Shown here one piece after another: positions 836 through 9,263 of a DNA stretch of 62,788 nucleotides. How positions within the stretch are numbered: position 1 is the stretch's first letter; each line of letters opens with the position of its first letter. The DNA is taken from positions 1 to 62,788 of the IMG/VR virus record IMGVR_UViG_3300044228_002718; one strand, written 5' to 3'. A program made the translations under genes and the position numbers. The stretch comes from a virus. Lineage: Duplodnaviria > Caudoviricetes. Under the pieces are notes generated by a model. The model was not told the DNA's origin and did no database searches. It was given only the letters and a program-made list of their open reading frames with translations.

Positions 836-984
836 AACTCTTCCCAAATTCTAGGGATAACGCAGTAAATTATACATAAGGTTAAGCACTTGAAGTGAGG
901 AAAATAACCTTAAAAATAAAAAGAAATTGGAAGAAATTAGACAAAATTAAATGATAAGTGTAGTAATTAGTAGAAAATGTAGTA

Positions 985-1195
985 TTTAAGTAGGTTAAGC
1001 TTAACTTTCATTAAGCCATGAAGTTGTCATAAGAGTTTATGACTTGAAACTTCGTTTCTATGTTGTCTTCGCTTAAGCATAGATTCTTAGCGATAGCTGC
1101 ACTCCCATTACCATTCCCGTGCAGCAGTGCTAGAATTATGCTAACCTCAGACAGAGAAAAAATAGATGATTGACTAAGCTAATCATCATACTTAT
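985..1195 (-). ncRNA. candidate structured non-coding RNA (or structured DNA element)
   Basis: No ORF. Four consecutive stem-loops (1165-1187, 1077-1141, 1020-1053, 999-1016) lie directly downstream of a leftward sigma70-type promoter. Confidence 0.5.
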
Positions 1196-1201
1196 GTATA
1201 T

Positions 1202-1230
1202 ATTATATCACAACTTTGAGCAGATTGCAA
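1202..1230 (-). promoter_or_regulatory. sigma70-type promoter, leftward
   Basis: AAAAATAATAC-TTGCAA-17 bp-TATAAT on the - strand. Confidence 0.75.
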
Positions 1231-1289
1231 GTATTATTTTTCTCAGGTATAGAATTTGGTTTGCTGTGCAAGCATAGGTGAATGATAAT

Positions 1290-1556
1290 TTATTTTATTT
1301 TTCTATGTTGCTTCATAAAATGATTTCTTTCTTCAGGTGTGAAGGATTTACATTGCAGTTCCGCCTGTAATTTTAATTCGTTGTTACGCTTTGATTGCCT
1401 TCTTTTCGCGTAGTTGAGTTTCTCTTTTCGTCGCTGTGAAGGTTTAATATACTGTTGGCGTTCTCGAACCTCTTGTATCATTCCACTCGCAGTAACTTTT
1501 CTCTTAAACAAGCGAATTGCTTTTTCGAAAGGCATATTTTTACTATAGACTCTCAC
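1290..1556 (-). CDS. rpsU: ribosomal protein bS21 (S21)
   Basis: FEKAIRLFKRKV...GMIQEVRERQQYIKPSQRRKEK matches the S21 family pattern; AAGGAG SD before GTG. Confidence 0.9.
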   Translation of the reverse strand: MRVYSKNMPFEKAIRLFKRKVTASGMIQEVRERQQYIKPSQRRKEKLNYAKRRQSKRNNELKLQAELQCKSFTPEERNHFMKQHRKIK

Positions 1557-1837: not shown

Positions 1838-2218
1838 TCATAGTATGCTGTCCATATGCTTGGATTTGCTACCTTGCTCACCTGCTGAACAGTTTACTTT
1901 TATTTCCTCTTTTCTTAGTTTAAGATACCATTTTGCGCCACCTTTTCTTGCGTCTTCAAAAGTAGCCCATGTAAACCAAAGTGGTATAATGATGGAAAGG
2001 TGAACTATAAGACTCACTAATGAGTTATAGTATCCAAACCAACCACCCCAGTATGCTGCTATAAAGCCGAAGAAAAATGCCCACATGACAAACAATACAG
2101 TCATAAAGTATGCCTGTAAAGATGGCTCTGGTATATATTTCAACGGATTATACTTTGCGTTCATGACTGCGTTCCAGCAGTCGTAAATCCATAAAAATGT
2201 TTTTTGAATATTTCTCAT
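1838..2218 (-). CDS. membrane protein (2-3 TM), hypothetical
   Basis: Hydrophobic stretches; ATG lies 6 nt after the -10 box. Confidence 0.75.
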   Translation of the reverse strand: MRNIQKTFLWIYDCWNAVMNAKYNPLKYIPEPSLQAYFMTVLFVMWAFFFGFIAAYWGGWFGYYNSLVSLIVHLSIIIPLWFTWATFEDARKGGAKWYLKLRKEEIKVNCSAGEQGSKSKHMDSIL

Positions 2219-2224
2219 ACAAGT

Positions 2225-2253
2225 ATTATATCAAAAGAATAACCAAATGTCAA
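2225..2253 (-). promoter_or_regulatory. sigma70-type promoter, leftward (divergent pair)
   Basis: AAAAATAGTTC-TTGACA-17-TATAAT. Confidence 0.9.
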
Positions 2254-2284
2254 GAACTATTTTTAGGAATGTCAAAAATATTAC

Positions 2285-2313
2285 TTGACTTATGGTTAAA
2301 ATTTGTGTATAAT
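2285..2313 (+). promoter_or_regulatory. sigma70-type promoter
   Basis: AAAAATATTAC-TTGACT-17-TATAAT. Confidence 0.85.
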
Positions 2314-2319
2314 ATAACA

Positions 2320-2466
2320 ATGGATATATATTATTTAATAATTTTAATCGCAAGTAACATGTTCACTTACTTTTACACAAAAGAAGTGGTAATAAAGCAG
2401 ACTATTGACTTTCTAGAACGAACTGGAATGTTAGAATTTGATGACGACACCAAAAATAGTTCTTGA
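2320..2466 (+). CDS. small membrane protein (48 aa)
   Basis: MDIYYLIILIASNMF...; start re-called at ATG 2320 because the ORF-track start runs through two promoters. Confidence 0.65.
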   Translation: MDIYYLIILIASNMFTYFYTKEVVIKQTIDFLERTGMLEFDDDTKNSS

Positions 2467-2491
2467 CTTTTGCTGTCACTTGTGCTATAAT
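2463..2491 (+). promoter_or_regulatory. sigma70-type promoter for hsp20 and the lysis region
   Basis: AAAAATAGTTC-TTGACT-17-TATAAT. Confidence 0.85.
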
Positions 2492-2561
2492 AACTATGAA
2501 AACAATGATGTTTTCGCTCGCCATATCGAAAGAGTGGCTCATATTTTAAGGAGAATTAGAT

Positions 2562-2951
2562 ATGACAGACGCAATGTTAAGGCATTTTCTTGGGTTTGAC
2601 CCAGTAATGTTTAAAACCGTTGAGGGAAACTACCCTCGTTATAATTTAATAAAAGAAGAGGCAACTGACAGAGTTTCAGTTGAAATTGCAGTGCCAGGCT
2701 TTGATAAAGATGATATTAAAGTTAGTGTTGATGGTAGAAAATTAATCATTAGTGCTAATCCTGGCGATTGGTTAGAAGATGGAGAGGACTATCTTCACAA
2801 AGGTTTTTCTAGTAAAGGCTTCAATAAAGAGTTTATTCTAGGAGATTTTATGGAAGTTGATTCCGTAAGACTTCAGAATGGAGTTCTTTCTATTAATGTA
2901 GTCAAAGAGATACCTGAAGATAAAAGACCTAAAATCTTCGATATAGACTAA
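2562..2951 (+). CDS. small heat-shock protein Hsp20 (IbpA-like)
   Basis: NYPRYNLIK, EIAVPGF, YLHKG, LQNGVLSI, IPEDKRPK alpha-crystallin motifs; AAGGAG SD. Confidence 0.93.
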   Translation: MTDAMLRHFLGFDPVMFKTVEGNYPRYNLIKEEATDRVSVEIAVPGFDKDDIKVSVDGRKLIISANPGDWLEDGEDYLHKGFSSKGFNKEFILGDFMEVDSVRLQNGVLSINVVKEIPEDKRPKIFDID

Positions 2952-2957
2952 TGCAAT

Positions 2958-2983
2958 GCTTCTCCTTCGGGAGAAGCCCTTTT
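2958..2983 (+). terminator. intrinsic terminator
   Basis: GCTTCTCC-TTCG-GGAGAAGC followed by CCTTTT. Confidence 0.75.
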
Positions 2984-2996
2984 GAGGAAATAATAT

Positions 2997-3440
2997 ATGA
3001 AGATAAGTCAAGAGGGAATATCCCTAATTAAAAAATTTGAAGGATTTGAAAGTGACGCGTATCAATGTCCAGCAGGAGTTTGGACAATAGGATATGGTCA
3101 TACAAAAGGAGTCACCGCAGGTGATGTATGGAGTGAAGAACACGCCAGTCACATACTAGAAGTAGAATTAGAAGAATACGAAGAATATATAAATGAGTAT
3201 GTGGAAGTAAAATTAAACCAAAATCAATTCGATGCTTTGGTAGCATGGGTTTACAACCTAGGGCCAAGCAATCTAAAAAGTTCAACAATGTTAAAAGTTC
3301 TAAATGAGGAAGAATGGGAAGAAGTTCCTCGACAAATGAAAAGATGGAATAAAGCAGGAGGCGAAGTTCTTCGTGGATTAGTTCGTAGACGAGAAGCCGA
3401 AGCTATGTTATTTCAAGGCAAAGACTGGTATGATGTATAA
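2997..3440 (+). CDS. endolysin, GH24 phage lysozyme
   Basis: IKKFEG..AYQCPAGVWTIGYGHT, NQFDAL, GLVRRREAE; Glu-Cys-Thr catalytic arrangement. Confidence 0.95.
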   Translation: MKISQEGISLIKKFEGFESDAYQCPAGVWTIGYGHTKGVTAGDVWSEEHASHILEVELEEYEEYINEYVEVKLNQNQFDALVAWVYNLGPSNLKSSTMLKVLNEEEWEEVPRQMKRWNKAGGEVLRGLVRRREAEAMLFQGKDWYDV

Positions 3441-3651
3441 GTTTTGGCAGTGGTTGAAAAGCCTGTTCATAACCAGATACAGAATTACAGTAAGCTATAA
3501 TAATGAGTGGGGCGATAGTGATGATAAAGAATTTATATCCAAAAAAGTCATAACTCAGAAAGAAAAACATTTGAAATTTAGAGATAATGATGGAAAATTA
3601 ATTGAAATCAGGAGTGTACAAGGATTACACTATCGAATTGAGGAGTTATAA
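3430..3651 (+). CDS. hypothetical protein
   Basis: Overlaps both neighbours in the lysis operon. Confidence 0.7.
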   Translation: MMYKFWQWLKSLFITRYRITVSYNNEWGDSDDKEFISKKVITQKEKHLKFRDNDGKLIEIRSVQGLHYRIEEL

Positions 3652-3866
3652 TGTTAGAAAAGATTATATCAGAAAGATTAGGCTGTGAATTACACCAAGT
3701 AAAAGATAATTCACATTTCGTAGACGATTTAGGAGCTGATTCATTAGATACAGTAGAATTAGTACTAGATGTAGAGAAAGAGTATGGAATTCTCATACCT
3801 GACGAAGAAGTAGATAAATTAGTAACAGTTGCTTTACTAAAAGAATTTATAGAGGAAAATAAGTAA
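3651..3866 (+). CDS. acpP: acyl carrier protein
   Basis: FVDDLGADSLDTVELV phosphopantetheine-attachment motif; IPDEE; acidic 71 aa; GAGGAG SD. Confidence 0.93.
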   Translation: MLEKIISERLGCELHQVKDNSHFVDDLGADSLDTVELVLDVEKEYGILIPDEEVDKLVTVALLKEFIEENK

Positions 3867-4261
3867 TGTATCAATTTTTATTAGCATTAATAGTAGCATT
3901 GGGCGGAAGTACTTATTATCTATGGAATGAAAACCAAACACTAAAGGCAAATAATGCCAAACTAGAATACGCAGTAGAAACACAAGAGGAAACAATAACA
4001 AGTTTACAAAATGATTTTGCGTTGCAAGGTAAGAGTTTAATAGATATGCAAAGTAAAAATCAAGAAATAGAAGCAGAGATGAATCGCTACTTAGATATAT
4101 TTAAAAGACACGATTTAAGTAAGTTAGCAGCTGCAAAGCCAGGGCTTATAGAGCCAAGAGTAAATAAAGCAACTAAGGAAGTATTTAATGGAATTGAACA
4201 AGATAGCAGGGATATTGATAGTGCTGATGACGGTATCGAATTGCAGTCTACTCCCAACTAA
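3866..4261 (+). CDS. putative i-spanin (Rz-like)
   Basis: N-terminal TM helix plus coiled coil; downstream of the endolysin; overlaps a lipoprotein gene. Confidence 0.7.
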   Translation: MYQFLLALIVALGGSTYYLWNENQTLKANNAKLEYAVETQEETITSLQNDFALQGKSLIDMQSKNQEIEAEMNRYLDIFKRHDLSKLAAAKPGLIEPRVNKATKEVFNGIEQDSRDIDSADDGIELQSTPN

Positions 4262-4565
4262 ACAGATTGAGATTAGTGCAAAACCAATAGAAAGAACTAT
4301 CATACAACCAGTATTGCCCAGAGAAATAGATTTAAAAGAACCTTACTGGTATGTAGTATCAGAAAAGAACATAGATGAGTTTCTCGAAAGGGTAGAAAAG
4401 GAGCAAGGAGAAGTAGTCTTTTTTGCAATGAGTGTGCAAGATTATGAACTAATGGCATACAATATGCAAGAGTTAAAAAGATATATTCGTGAGCTCAAGG
4501 AGGTAGTAATCTACTACCGTAAGGTAACAGAAAATGGCGGAGATGAGTCAGGACAACAGCCGTAA
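4188..4565 (+). CDS. putative o-spanin lipoprotein (Rz1-like)
   Basis: Signal peptide with lipobox-like VSNC; overlaps the 3' end of the i-spanin in another frame. Confidence 0.7.
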   Translation: MELNKIAGILIVLMTVSNCSLLPTKQIEISAKPIERTIIQPVLPREIDLKEPYWYVVSEKNIDEFLERVEKEQGEVVFFAMSVQDYELMAYNMQELKRYIRELKEVVIYYRKVTENGGDESGQQP

Positions 4566-4902
4566 TGAAGTCCAAATAGATTTAGATAAGTATATGAAGT
4601 TAGTCGATAAACTCGACGCAGCTGAAGACTTAATCGAAAAAATGAAACAAGAACGAGGCAGGTTAAAGCCTGGTAAGCGAAAGTTTATGGACTTATTCCT
4701 AGATGACAATGATATAAACGAAAAAGCAATCATTGGCTTTATATCATTTTTCTTAATGACAGTATTTGGAATATGTGATTTAGTCACAGCATTTTTAGGA
4801 CAAGACTTAGTTATATCAGATACAATTTACACATCATTTGTGATAGTAACATTGGGAGCATTTGGTATATCAGAAGCAGGAAAAGCTTTTGGCGGTAAGT
4901 AA
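4534..4902 (+). CDS. two-TM membrane protein, holin candidate
   Basis: Two C-terminal hydrophobic helices; lysis cassette context. Confidence 0.5.
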   Translation: MAEMSQDNSRNEVQIDLDKYMKLVDKLDAAEDLIEKMKQERGRLKPGKRKFMDLFLDDNDINEKAIIGFISFFLMTVFGICDLVTAFLGQDLVISDTIYTSFVIVTLGAFGISEAGKAFGGK

Positions 4903-4905
4903 ACA

Positions 4906-5091
4906 ATGATTGAGTTTCTAAAGGCTTTATTTTGGAAAAGAAAACTTGAGAAAGCTTCTTCGTGGTTTGAAAAACACGAGTGGGTTCAAGAGAGATTTGA
5001 AGAGATTGAAGACTGGTTAGAAGAAGTAGATGAGAAATTAGACCTCATCATAGACCATCTAGAAATAGATGTCGATAAAGAAGGAGAGTAA
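4906..5091 (+). CDS. hypothetical protein
   Basis: ORF within the operon; acidic coiled-coil-like tail. Confidence 0.65.
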   Translation: MIEFLKALFWKRKLEKASSWFEKHEWVQERFEEIEDWLEEVDEKLDLIIDHLEIDVDKEGE

Positions 5092-5092
5092 A

Positions 5093-5269
5093 ATGCTAGA
5101 ATTTTTTGAATACATAGTGAGATGGCTAATGGTTATCCCTTGGATTGTAGCAGGAGCGTCTTTAATTGCGGCTCTAACACCTACACCGAAAGATGATGCT
5201 TGGGTAAAGAAAATTTACTGGGTAATCGACTGGTGTGCAATTAATGTTGGTAAAGCAAAAGACAAATGA
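5093..5269 (+). CDS. small membrane protein, holin-like
   Basis: TM helix followed by ALTPTPKDD; start re-called at ATG 5093 behind AAGGAG. Confidence 0.6.
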   Translation: MLEFFEYIVRWLMVIPWIVAGASLIAALTPTPKDDAWVKKIYWVIDWCAINVGKAKDK

Positions 5270-5277
5270 CTTTACGA

Positions 5278-5309
5278 AAGCTAGGGATTCCCGTCCCTAG
5301 CTTATTTTT
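5278..5309 (+). terminator. intrinsic terminator
   Basis: AAGCTAGGGA-TTCCCG-TCCCTAGCTT followed by ATTTTT. Confidence 0.8.
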
Positions 5310-8630: not shown

Positions 8631-8925
8631 TTTACAGGAACCACCATTTTATGAAAAAACCATCAACTATGATGAAAATAAACATATAAAAATATGTCTT
8701 ACAGTTCATACATTCAAAGGAGTTGAGTGGTTATCCATCAGAAAATATTACCAAGACTTTGACGAAGAGTGGAAGCCAGGTAATGAAGGAATAACTATGC
8801 CGTTGGACTTAGATAATGCAAGAGAAATGTTCCTAGGATTAGTAGAAATATTATCTCTAGCTGAAAGTAAAACGATACTCGAACAAGAGTTCAAAGAAAT
8901 TTTAGATAAAATTTACCTCAACTAA
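8623..8925 (+). CDS. PC4-like ssDNA-binding protein
   Basis: TFKGVEWLSIRKYYQD..EWKPGNEGITM fits the PC4/p15 fold; T5 encodes one at this position. Confidence 0.8.
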   Translation: MIDLQEPPFYEKTINYDENKHIKICLTVHTFKGVEWLSIRKYYQDFDEEWKPGNEGITMPLDLDNAREMFLGLVEILSLAESKTILEQEFKEILDKIYLN

Positions 8926-8934
8926 AAATATTTC

Positions 8935-8963
8935 TTGACTTTTGCTTATAATTTTGATATAAT
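8935..8963 (+). promoter_or_regulatory. sigma70-type promoter
   Basis: AAAAATATTTC-TTGACT-17-TATAAT; ATG 6 nt downstream. Confidence 0.88.
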
Positions 8964-8969
8964 ATATGT

Positions 8970-9263
8970 ATGATTATAAATGGAAGTTTAAATTACGATA
9001 TATATGGGAGAAGAAAGAAGTCTACTCCCAGAAAAAGAACAAACCGTCAAGGGGCTGTAGCTCAGATGGGAGAGCGTCGCGTTTGCACCGCGAAGGTCGC
9101 TGGTTCGACTCCAGTCAGCTCCACCAAACTGCCTAAGTATACCCCCGCAGAAGATACTTCTTACAAAAAGAAGATTAGTAGTAAGTATACTGTAGCTATA
9201 GCATATAACAAGGGAGCTTATCAAGTTATCCCTAAATCAGACATTAAAGATATAGGAAAATGA
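8970..9263 (+). CDS. basic hypothetical protein whose coding sequence contains a tRNA
   Basis: Leaderless-position ATG; C-terminal AYNKGAYQVI motif recalled from other phage hypotheticals; ATGA overlap with ligase A. Confidence 0.65.
   Translation: MIINGSLNYDIYGRRKKSTPRKRTNRQGAVAQMGERRVCTAKVAGSTPVSSTKLPKYTPAEDTSYKKKISSKYTVAIAYNKGAYQVIPKSDIKDIGK
9051..9126 (+). tRNA. tRNA-Ala(UGC)
   Basis: 76-nt cloverleaf: GGGGCTG/CAGCTCC acceptor with G3:U70, GCTC/GAGC D stem, TCGCG/CGCGA stem with anticodon TGC at 9084-9086, GGTTCGA T loop, encoded CCA. Confidence 0.95.

Follow-up and report, generated by a model that had tools for sequence, protein, structure and literature searches.

The noncoding gap beside a viral gene for ribosomal protein bS21 contains a member of a previously undescribed family of phage RNAs, which is encoded directly 3′ of that gene. 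The element lies on the minus strand of the Caudoviricetes record IMGVR_UViG_3300044228_002718, here called the window, which is a whole viral record of 62,788 nucleotides (nt) with an estimated completeness of 64%, and there is little doubt that it is a real transcribed gene for a structured RNA. The original prediction, made from the letters of the DNA, had described a leftward promoter running into a series of hairpins and had proposed an RNA of about 200 nt. A noncoding minus-strand RNA of this kind is borne out by the conservation of its promoter, by substitutions that keep the pairs, by G-U pairing confined to the minus strand, and by two metatranscriptome contigs with lengths of 198 and 204 nt. 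What is new with respect to that proposal, and constitutes the main result, is an apparently strict linkage to the phage bS21 gene, as judged from gene order.

Linkage to bS21 and conservation of the RNA

The promoter core of the RNA, CTTGC-N9-AAAGTTGTGRTATAAT, was found by a scan of the viral collection in 29 contig stretches, every one of which continues into a member of the family; the 27 of sufficient length comprise 22 distinct sequences. When the window is added to these 29 loci, an open reading frame (ORF) for bS21 ends 44-123 nt upstream, on the same strand, in 29 of the 30, and the remaining locus has only 213 nt of upstream sequence, its contig being itself a bS21 locus. An nhmmer profile built from 36 diverse members matched 58 of 80 bS21 loci (the best 80 of 274 bS21 relatives) at E ≤3.4e-13, each time on the same strand downstream of bS21 and over nearly the full length; where at least 420 nt of downstream sequence were available, the RNA was present in 56 of 70 loci and absent in 14. 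Moreover, 82 loci fetched through unrelated genes (643,072 nt) gave four matches to the profile, and all four have bS21 just upstream. The flanking genes on both sides of the bS21-RNA pair vary between lineages, and in one relative (L013) the gene and the RNA are both absent at the matching place.

A search with the bS21 protein, together with a pattern for the flanks of the long rod of the RNA, yielded three viral and four metagenome contigs, that is, seven distinct sequences from three lineages (A-C), all of them with the element and its promoter at the same place. Their consensus fold has 64 pairs, 14 of them changed on both sides, and in the trimmed alignment of these sequences 14 of 52 pairs are compensatory, with 97.7% of the cells paired versus 89.5% in shuffles; none of 500 shuffles reached the observed level, and slid controls gave 0-3. 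More distant contigs, whose bS21 proteins are 31-46% identical, show the same promoter after bS21, followed by a different-looking long rod with the same layout of its tip. For 11 diverse members, aligned with MAFFT and fitted to no structure, RNAalifold gave 22 pairs, 12 of them compensatory, with 96.7% of the cells paired versus 84.6% in shuffles, slid controls of 0-5 and, once more, 0 of 500 shuffles at the observed level. In this alignment, 18 G-U cells on the minus strand correspond to mismatches on the other strand; the conserved promoter and the purine-rich loops point to the minus strand as well. The original prediction had proposed to look for covariation in syntenic regions of related phages, and such changes are present both in the close relatives and in the wider family.

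A covariance model made from the same 11 sequences detected members from other lineages at E ≤2.5e-4, with a limited sensitivity, as it recovered seven of 18 known non-seed loci and missed the window's own, more derived lineage. In one distant lineage, the block that begins some 35 nt ahead of the -35 box and ends at a two-way terminator shows one change in about 365 nt, and both flanks diverge, including the spacer next to bS21. In most lineages, words of the leader pair with a segment after the rod and close it, whereas in the lineage of the window the same words form a local hairpin, hairpin 1 (a partly by-eye reading). The commonest tip of the family, GAAYGAAGCG(U)AAGCGRGARUGA, consists of Watson-Crick steps of 2 bp alternating with tandem G-A pairs and ends in a GNRA-like or 3-nt loop, and the same layout appears with other letters in GAA-GC-GUAA-GC-GAGA, GAGA-GC-CUAA-GC-GGGA and GGGGGA-GC-GACA-GC-GGGGGA. 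Two to four short hairpins come after the rod. A structural regular expression for the tip matched no more than 21 of 70 loci, against a background of 0.09 per 380 nt, and gave way to the nhmmer profile as too strict, and a generalised expression for the promoter, which matched unrelated places, was discarded.

Comparison with the 4227 models of Rfam 15, a check of the kind proposed with the original prediction, gave no match for the element, and the whole window yielded only a tRNA-Ala at the gathering threshold. With E up to 10, positions 700-1500 produced nothing above chance, the matches scoring 15-17 bits where the cut-offs are 41-80, and the same models found only tRNAs in 11 loci of relatives. 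As had been supposed, the element is neither a tRNA nor a transfer-messenger RNA (tmRNA), since a scan for both in the window finds only tRNA-Ala, at 9051-9126. A blastn search of 826-1290 against 50,697 phage records gave no match. Two other members of the family had matches in T5-like phages of Salmonella and E. coli, confined to the promoter and the first transcribed bases (16 and 6 records), and a further match of 30 nt lay at the 3′ end. The promoter and first transcribed bases resemble a T5-type early promoter of a cultured T5-like phage, Salmonella phage S126, where the matching promoter drives a protein gene. One covariance model (R1) found nothing in T5 and three T5-like phages (0 of 4), nor did the 11-sequence model (R2) in five cultured T5-like phages, T5 included (0 of 5). 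Exact patterns for the rod flanks and for the apical motif had no occurrence in the bacterial and archaeal genome collection, and the exact 30-nt apical pattern had none in viral contigs. In the literature, no description of an RNA linked to phage bS21 was found, supplementary annotations lying outside the search, and PMC9723584 has 0 occurrences of 'non-coding', 'ncRNA', 'intergenic' and 'promoter'.

Promoter, fold and transcripts of the RNA

Table 1. Features of the bS21-RNA region in the window
Feature	Position	Strand	Details
bS21 gene	1290..1556	-	88 amino acids (aa); last in leftward operon starting near 2218; Pfam Ribosomal_S21 1.8e-14, PHROG 21469 1.9e-11
Promoter	1202..1245	-	A-rich upstream, -35 TTGCAA (1230-1225), 17-nt spacer, TG, -10 TATAAT (1207-1202); expected start near 1195
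Leader and hairpin 1	1157..1201	-	GAUGAUU-AGCUUAGUC-AAUCAUC (1165-1187), then U6 (1162-1157)
Match to family profile	917..1200	-	nhmmer, profile positions 2-265, E = 1.3e-24, sole hit in the window
Candidate mature RNA, ~200 nt	960..1163	-	Contigs 966-1163 (198 nt, depth 4.3) and 960-1163 (204 nt, depth 2.6)
Long irregular rod, ~90 nt	1064..1153	-	Invariant internal loops: tandem G-A (1148-1147 opposite 1070-1069), ACU opposite UAUC
Apical module	1103..1118	-	GGGA-AU-GGUA-AU-GGGA: symmetric purine-rich internal loop, 2-bp helix, tetraloop
Small hairpin GAAAC-GAA-GUUUC (helix 4)	1046..1058	-	5 pairs, one compensatory (A-U to U-A), 100% paired
Hairpin GUCAUAA-ACUC-UUAUGAC (helix 5)	1026..1043	-	7 pairs
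Hairpin GCUUAAU-GAAA-GUUAAGC	999..1016	-	Form of the window lineage only
UUACUAC word	960..966	-	End of RNA contigs; UUACUA(C/A) at same relative place across family (by-eye alignment reading)
Conserved block AAUUUCUUCCAAUU	925..938	-	Beyond RNA contigs; family counterpart GCG(C/U)CCAAUUC, then A4-U6, in many lineages a two-way terminator

The leftward promoter named in the original prediction is indeed a near-consensus sigma-70 promoter, with 10 of 12 matches and a TG ahead of the -10 box (Table 1). The whole window has eight sites that combine this TG and an intact TATAAT with a -35 box of at least 4 of 6 matches, against a mean of 1.12 and a maximum of 4 in 50 shuffles. The promoter sits 58 nt (window) to 123 nt past the bS21 stop codon, and a scan called no terminator-like site in 1157-1290, between bS21 and the RNA promoter. 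Downstream there is no minus-strand ORF of at least 25 aa in 826-1289, in agreement with the earlier claim that no plausible protein gene follows. A gene for a small protein or leader peptide was considered and rejected: the frame that opens at the leader AUGAUG has 17 codons in the window, 8 in L003 and 14 in L004 and L010 (by-eye reading), and is thus not kept across lineages A-C, no Shine-Dalgarno sequence stands before it, and some members have no AUG. A 52-aa frame is present in L021, but in another register.

For the minus strand of 960-1200 the folding energy is -63.9 kcal/mol (z = -4.22; none of 200 shuffles did as well), and for the plus strand z is -3.08, one shuffle in 200 doing as well. 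The three perfect 7-nt inverted repeats pointed out at the start are all present (GATGATT/AATCATC at 1165-1171/1181-1187, GCTGCAC/GTGCAGC at 1096-1102/1119-1125 and GTCATAA/TTATGAC at 1026-1032/1037-1043), and the imperfect rod is supported by the relatives, where its helices 1-3 comprise 30 pairs, 11 of them changed on both sides, with 99-100% of the cells paired. At the tip, the 2-bp helix covaries, being U-A in lineages A and C and C-G in B (pair 53-58). The outer stem GAAGTT/AACTTC that had been drawn around the next hairpin does not hold, as the relatives show in its stead a separate covarying hairpin of 5 bp, GAUAC-GAA-GUAUC, for the GAAAC-GAA-GUUUC of the window. Helix 5 is neutral as to pairing because it is invariant in lineages A-C. 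The last predicted hairpin, with its GNRA tetraloop, exists in the lineage of the window, but the relatives carry two short hairpins there; these helices, 6 and 7, are about 90% paired, including G-U pairs on the minus strand.

The leader with hairpin 1 is the most conserved segment in lineages A-C (87-95% nt identity). As an intrinsic terminator this hairpin would have a 7-bp stem with two G-C pairs and a U6 that begins 2 nt beyond it; it was not called in the scan because three G-C pairs are demanded there, and contigs of RNA exist downstream. Possibly, hairpin 1 and its U6 are a weak terminator or a processing signal. The lower end of the rod has a competitor in an alternative hairpin at 1062-1082 (-), CUAUG / loop CUUAAGCGAAGACAA / CAUAG, versions of which also fit lineages B and C, so that a two-state fold is possible. 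Past the RNA, unstructured conserved blocks follow in the order UUACUA, GCG(C/U)CCAAUUC and A4-U6 (window 925-938 and 869-905 on the minus strand; L021 3330-3440; L153 3060-3170). The block at 925-938 may have its function in the DNA itself; nicks in T5 DNA occur at words of the GCGC type, and the gap of T5 that corresponds to this one contains a major nick. At 869-876 (-) there is an extended -10 box (TGTATAAT) with no evident -35 box, which is conserved in lineages A and B and faces antisense of the rightward genes ending at 825. The stretch 826-985 has short direct repeats, with GAAATT-type words at 10- and 20-nt spacing and two copies of TGTAGTAWTTA, all poorly conserved in relatives.

With regard to expression, of 24 sequencing runs listed, 17 DNA runs from seawater contain every word sampled from the stretch, and three RNA runs contain part of it. 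Contigs of the RNA runs were placed on positions 400-2000 of the window. Two metatranscriptome studies gave one contig of the element each, with 0 mismatches, no loose ends and a common end at 1163, just past hairpin 1, between AAUCAUCU and AUUUUUU. In the third RNA run, contigs cover 1201-1424 (the 3′ part of bS21 up to the -10 box) and 400-621. No contig of the three RNA runs covers 622-959 or 1164-1200, and no conclusion was drawn from these gaps, nor from DNA run X1, examined to 55% only, with the element outside that cover. The end at 1163 lies in an A/U-rich single strand and is read, on weak to moderate evidence, as a 5′ end made by processing, and the evidence for a discrete RNA of about 200 nt that begins beyond hairpin 1 is of the same weak to moderate grade. 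The original prediction had looked to a discrete minus-strand RNA that starts near 1195; the apparent 5′ end of the contigs is at 1163, and they carry no strand.

The DNA polymerase of the window is 43% identical to its counterparts in cultured T5-like phages of Vibrio and Providencia, for which reason the phage is taken as a distant relative of the T5 group. The noncoding gap of 465 nt (826-1290) separates rightward genes, ending at 825, from the leftward operon (2218 to 1290) that converges on them, and its most A+T-rich stretch near the promoter is 901-1050, with 24% G+C. The Pfam match of bS21 exceeds the curated cut-off. The nearby 'A2-like cluster' of the original prediction did not survive comparison, as the neighbouring proteins of 101 and 56 aa have no significant likeness to T5 A2; the 101-aa protein had no match among phage records either. 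A 126-aa membrane protein without Pfam or PHROG match heads the bS21 operon (1838-2218, -); its relatives occur in 74 viral contig loci, with 36-78% identity, and in most of them bS21 is not nearby. In the gap of 23% G+C between the leftward bS21 operon and the rightward Hsp20 and lysozyme genes, back-to-back consensus promoters (12/12 and 11/12) are found at 2225-2313 and 2463-2491, with a third promoter (11/12) just downstream.

Other observations concern genes that accompany the pair. The promoter of tRNA-Ala, at 8925-8967 (+), is 77% identical over 44 nt to the promoter of the RNA, including the A-rich upstream part and the bases past the -10 box, which indicates that both genes share a promoter type. 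In L182, four tRNA genes stand in a row (2723-3029, +) about 700 nt from the bS21-RNA pair. The Hsp20 gene of the window (2562-2951) lies 1 kb off, across the divergent promoter region. In the closest relative by this protein, L013 (86% identical), a different gene set at 2000-5300 replaces the membrane protein, bS21 and the RNA. The gene after bS21 looks Hsp20-type by eye in the five loci read among the 14 without RNA (L101, L112, L128, L130 and L133), and bS21 and Hsp20 seem to travel together in marine phages.

Possible roles and rival explanations

The best overall explanation, for which the balance is about even, is that of an undescribed phage RNA that would work with the adjacent bS21 in the takeover of translation, by putative protein binding. 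Transcription is driven by the T5-type early sigma-70 promoter after the bS21 stop codon, and, as no terminator separates the two genes, read-through of the bS21 operon should add to the RNA. Endonucleolytic trimming of the RNase E type in the A/U-rich single strand past the leader hairpin would then yield one mature RNA from short and long transcripts alike. This RNA would act through a protein bound at its purine-rich tip and internal loops, and not by base-pairing. In its make-up, a small loop on a 2-bp helix flanked by purine-rich internal loops, the tip resembles a site for protein binding. Since the RNA was never found apart from bS21, the likeliest partner or pathway would be bS21 itself and the small ribosomal subunit. 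The RNA could be a carrier, decoy or assembly helper in the replacement of the host protein by the phage bS21. Taken separately, a function tied to bS21 or to translation is a tentative proposal, somewhat short of even, whereas a putative direct binding of the RNA to bS21 must be called doubtful. Equally doubtful is the full version of this idea, a two-gene module in which the tip of the RNA would bind bS21 and either deliver the viral protein to the host 30S subunit or soak up the host protein, thereby changing the choice of messages on which the ribosome initiates.

A precedent for such a partnership exists in OLE, a non-ribosomal structured RNA to which bS21 binds at a defined helix, a site that passages of PMC12054373 describe as a mimic of the Shine-Dalgarno/anti-Shine-Dalgarno duplex with conserved G-C pairs. 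Both are structured noncoding RNAs outside the ribosome that are associated with bS21 (by gene position in the phage), and both have purine-rich, kink-prone loops as candidate protein sites. On the other hand, OLE measures about 600 nt, is bacterial (Bacillota) and membrane-associated and does not lie beside rpsU, and its binding of bS21 is proven, whereas in the phage RNA it is a guess. The Rfam model of OLE has no match in the window or in the loci of relatives. Other stable structured RNAs are encoded by phages, such as the pRNA of phi29 and the stable RNAs of T4, which are likewise phage genes for structured RNAs of 100-200 nt, probably protein-binding, behind a strong early promoter. The present RNA differs in that it matches no Rfam family, pRNA included, and in its setting, which is always after bS21.

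Several points weigh against a partnership of the RNA with bS21, or against the evidence for the RNA itself. The link to bS21 is one of adjacency, which passive inheritance within one phage clade can also give, and the 14 of 70 loci without RNA indicate that bS21 can do without it in some phages. The 36-member profile was drawn partly from loci that it then scanned; several positive loci lie outside its seeds (for instance L106, L108-L110, L134-L139 and L144). A UUCC/GGAA helix of some members is UAUC/GAUA in others (by-eye reading), which means that the feature bound by bS21 in OLE is not conserved in the phage family. As for structure, the RNA core in lineages A-C, with 75-89% nt identity, does not exceed the bS21 coding sequence, with 78-82%, so that the signal lies in the pattern of change and not in a lower rate, and helices 1-5 of these lineages hold no G-U pair, so that within lineages A-C alone it is the promoter rather than the pairs that sets the strand. 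Finally, the depth in the RNA libraries is low (2.6-4.3), the strandless contigs could derive from DNA carry-over, and a strain difference that splits the assembly graph can also give the common contig end.

A distinctly unlikely alternative is a trans-acting regulatory RNA unrelated to bS21, either a small RNA (sRNA) that base-pairs with host messages or a sponge for CsrA, Hfq or ProQ, whose adjacency to bS21 would be a matter of descent. Such a molecule would fit the strong promoter of its own, the A/U-rich 5′ end beside a stem and the conserved, unpaired UUACUA near the 3′ end. sRNAs of the MicL/DapZ type arise from the 3′ end of operons by their own promoter and RNase E trimming, and act through a short seed with Hfq, ending in a standard terminator; the phage RNA shares with them the place after the last gene of an operon, its own promoter together with expected read-through, and an apparent 5′ end in an A/U-rich single strand past a hairpin. 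It differs, though, in being dominated by a long covarying rod with invariant non-canonical loops; its apparent 3′ end shows no clear terminator, and the search for a target gave none. Indeed, complementarity to the phage's own 62.8 kb does not go beyond chance (best 14 nt, E = 0.045, in a non-conserved part), and the linkage to bS21 persists while both flanking neighbourhoods change. The GGA words in the apical loop of the window had suggested a CsrA/RsmA-like sponge, a suggestion that fades within the family: most members have GAAGCG(U)AAGCGRGA in that place, and the loss of the GGA-rich loop makes a CsrA-type sponge unlikely. A sponge of the CsrB/RsmZ type, which displays GGA in the loops of many hairpins, was rejected as well, the window having GGA in one apical loop only and no Rfam match to the CsrB or Rsm families. 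The 6S-like polymerase decoy, also proposed at first, finds no support in a fold that lacks a large central bubble (internal loops of 2-4 nt per side) and has no match to 6S in Rfam; in 6S RNA, a rod of about 180 nt, such a bubble imitates an open promoter.

It is improbable that the hairpins are a cis-acting 3′ module that ends, processes or stabilises the bS21 message, with the downstream RNA as a by-product; no terminator stands between bS21 and the element, hairpin 1 with its following U6 is the most conserved segment in lineages A-C, and the contigs of the RNA libraries are interrupted over it, between 1163 and 1201, as such a module would have it, but it would require neither a dedicated and strongly conserved promoter between gene and element nor some 200 nt of covarying structure with invariant loops, far more than a terminator or stabiliser needs. 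Moreover, in the lineage with a nearly unchanged promoter-to-terminator block (1 change in ~365 nt), the spacer on the bS21 side diverges. No more probable is a signal at the level of DNA (injection stop, terminal-repeat boundary, nick or packaging site) formed by DNA hairpins whose transcription would be incidental. The resemblance to T5 proposed in the original prediction has support in the position: the untranslated Repeat Region 3 of the left terminal repeat of T5 is also a noncoding gap where rightward genes meet leftward early genes, with inverted repeats, and the T5 injection-stop region lies at the inner end of the terminal repeat. The conserved unstructured blocks after the RNA (UUACUA, GCGCCAAUUC, A4T6), the missing G-U pairs in helices 1-5 of lineages A-C and the several assemblies that end within about 1 kb of the element are in keeping with it. 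The analogy fails, however, in content. The T5 signal is marked by a cluster of paired DnaA boxes, TTWTNCACA, according to the relevant passages of 10.1101/866236, and no DnaA box exists in 826-1290 (the whole window has 8, against 10.8 expected by chance). Whereas the T5 region extends over about 1.2 kb with many direct and inverted repeats and palindromes, these paired boxes and a major nick, the gap of 465 nt has short repeats only, its longest inverted arms being of 15 nt at 73-80%. It also has a conserved promoter and covariation of the RNA type, in which the 18 G-U cells would turn into A-C mismatches if the opposite strand or a cruciform were to form the pairs, and RNA-library contigs match the borders of the element. 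A transcript that primes or activates a replication origin, from a promoter that fires into an A+T-rich unwinding region, is highly improbable; a strong promoter followed by the stretch of 24% G+C (901-1050) and the conserved A4-T6 block downstream agree with it, but there are no iterons or DnaA boxes, priming would explain neither a covarying rod with invariant loops nor the linkage to bS21, and in T5 the origins are reported near the middle of the genome (passages of 10.1101/866236).

Significance for viral bS21

The RNA belongs to a well-supported new family, which shows covariation in close and in distant relatives, has a defined promoter and counts 58 or more members within one bounded search, in a group of phages that has no cultured representative in the collections searched. 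Genes for bS21 are the commonest ribosomal genes in viruses, and a structured, conserved and expressed RNA linked to bS21 in a large group of marine phages is a concrete candidate in the question of how such genes benefit the virus. Ribosomes with a viral bS21 were inactive in vitro, and the authors suggested that another factor might be missing (PMC6375957), a remark that makes a partnership of bS21 and the RNA testable. If true, a ribosomal protein encoded by a virus would for the first time have an RNA cofactor, which could explain the inactivity of ribosomes with viral bS21.

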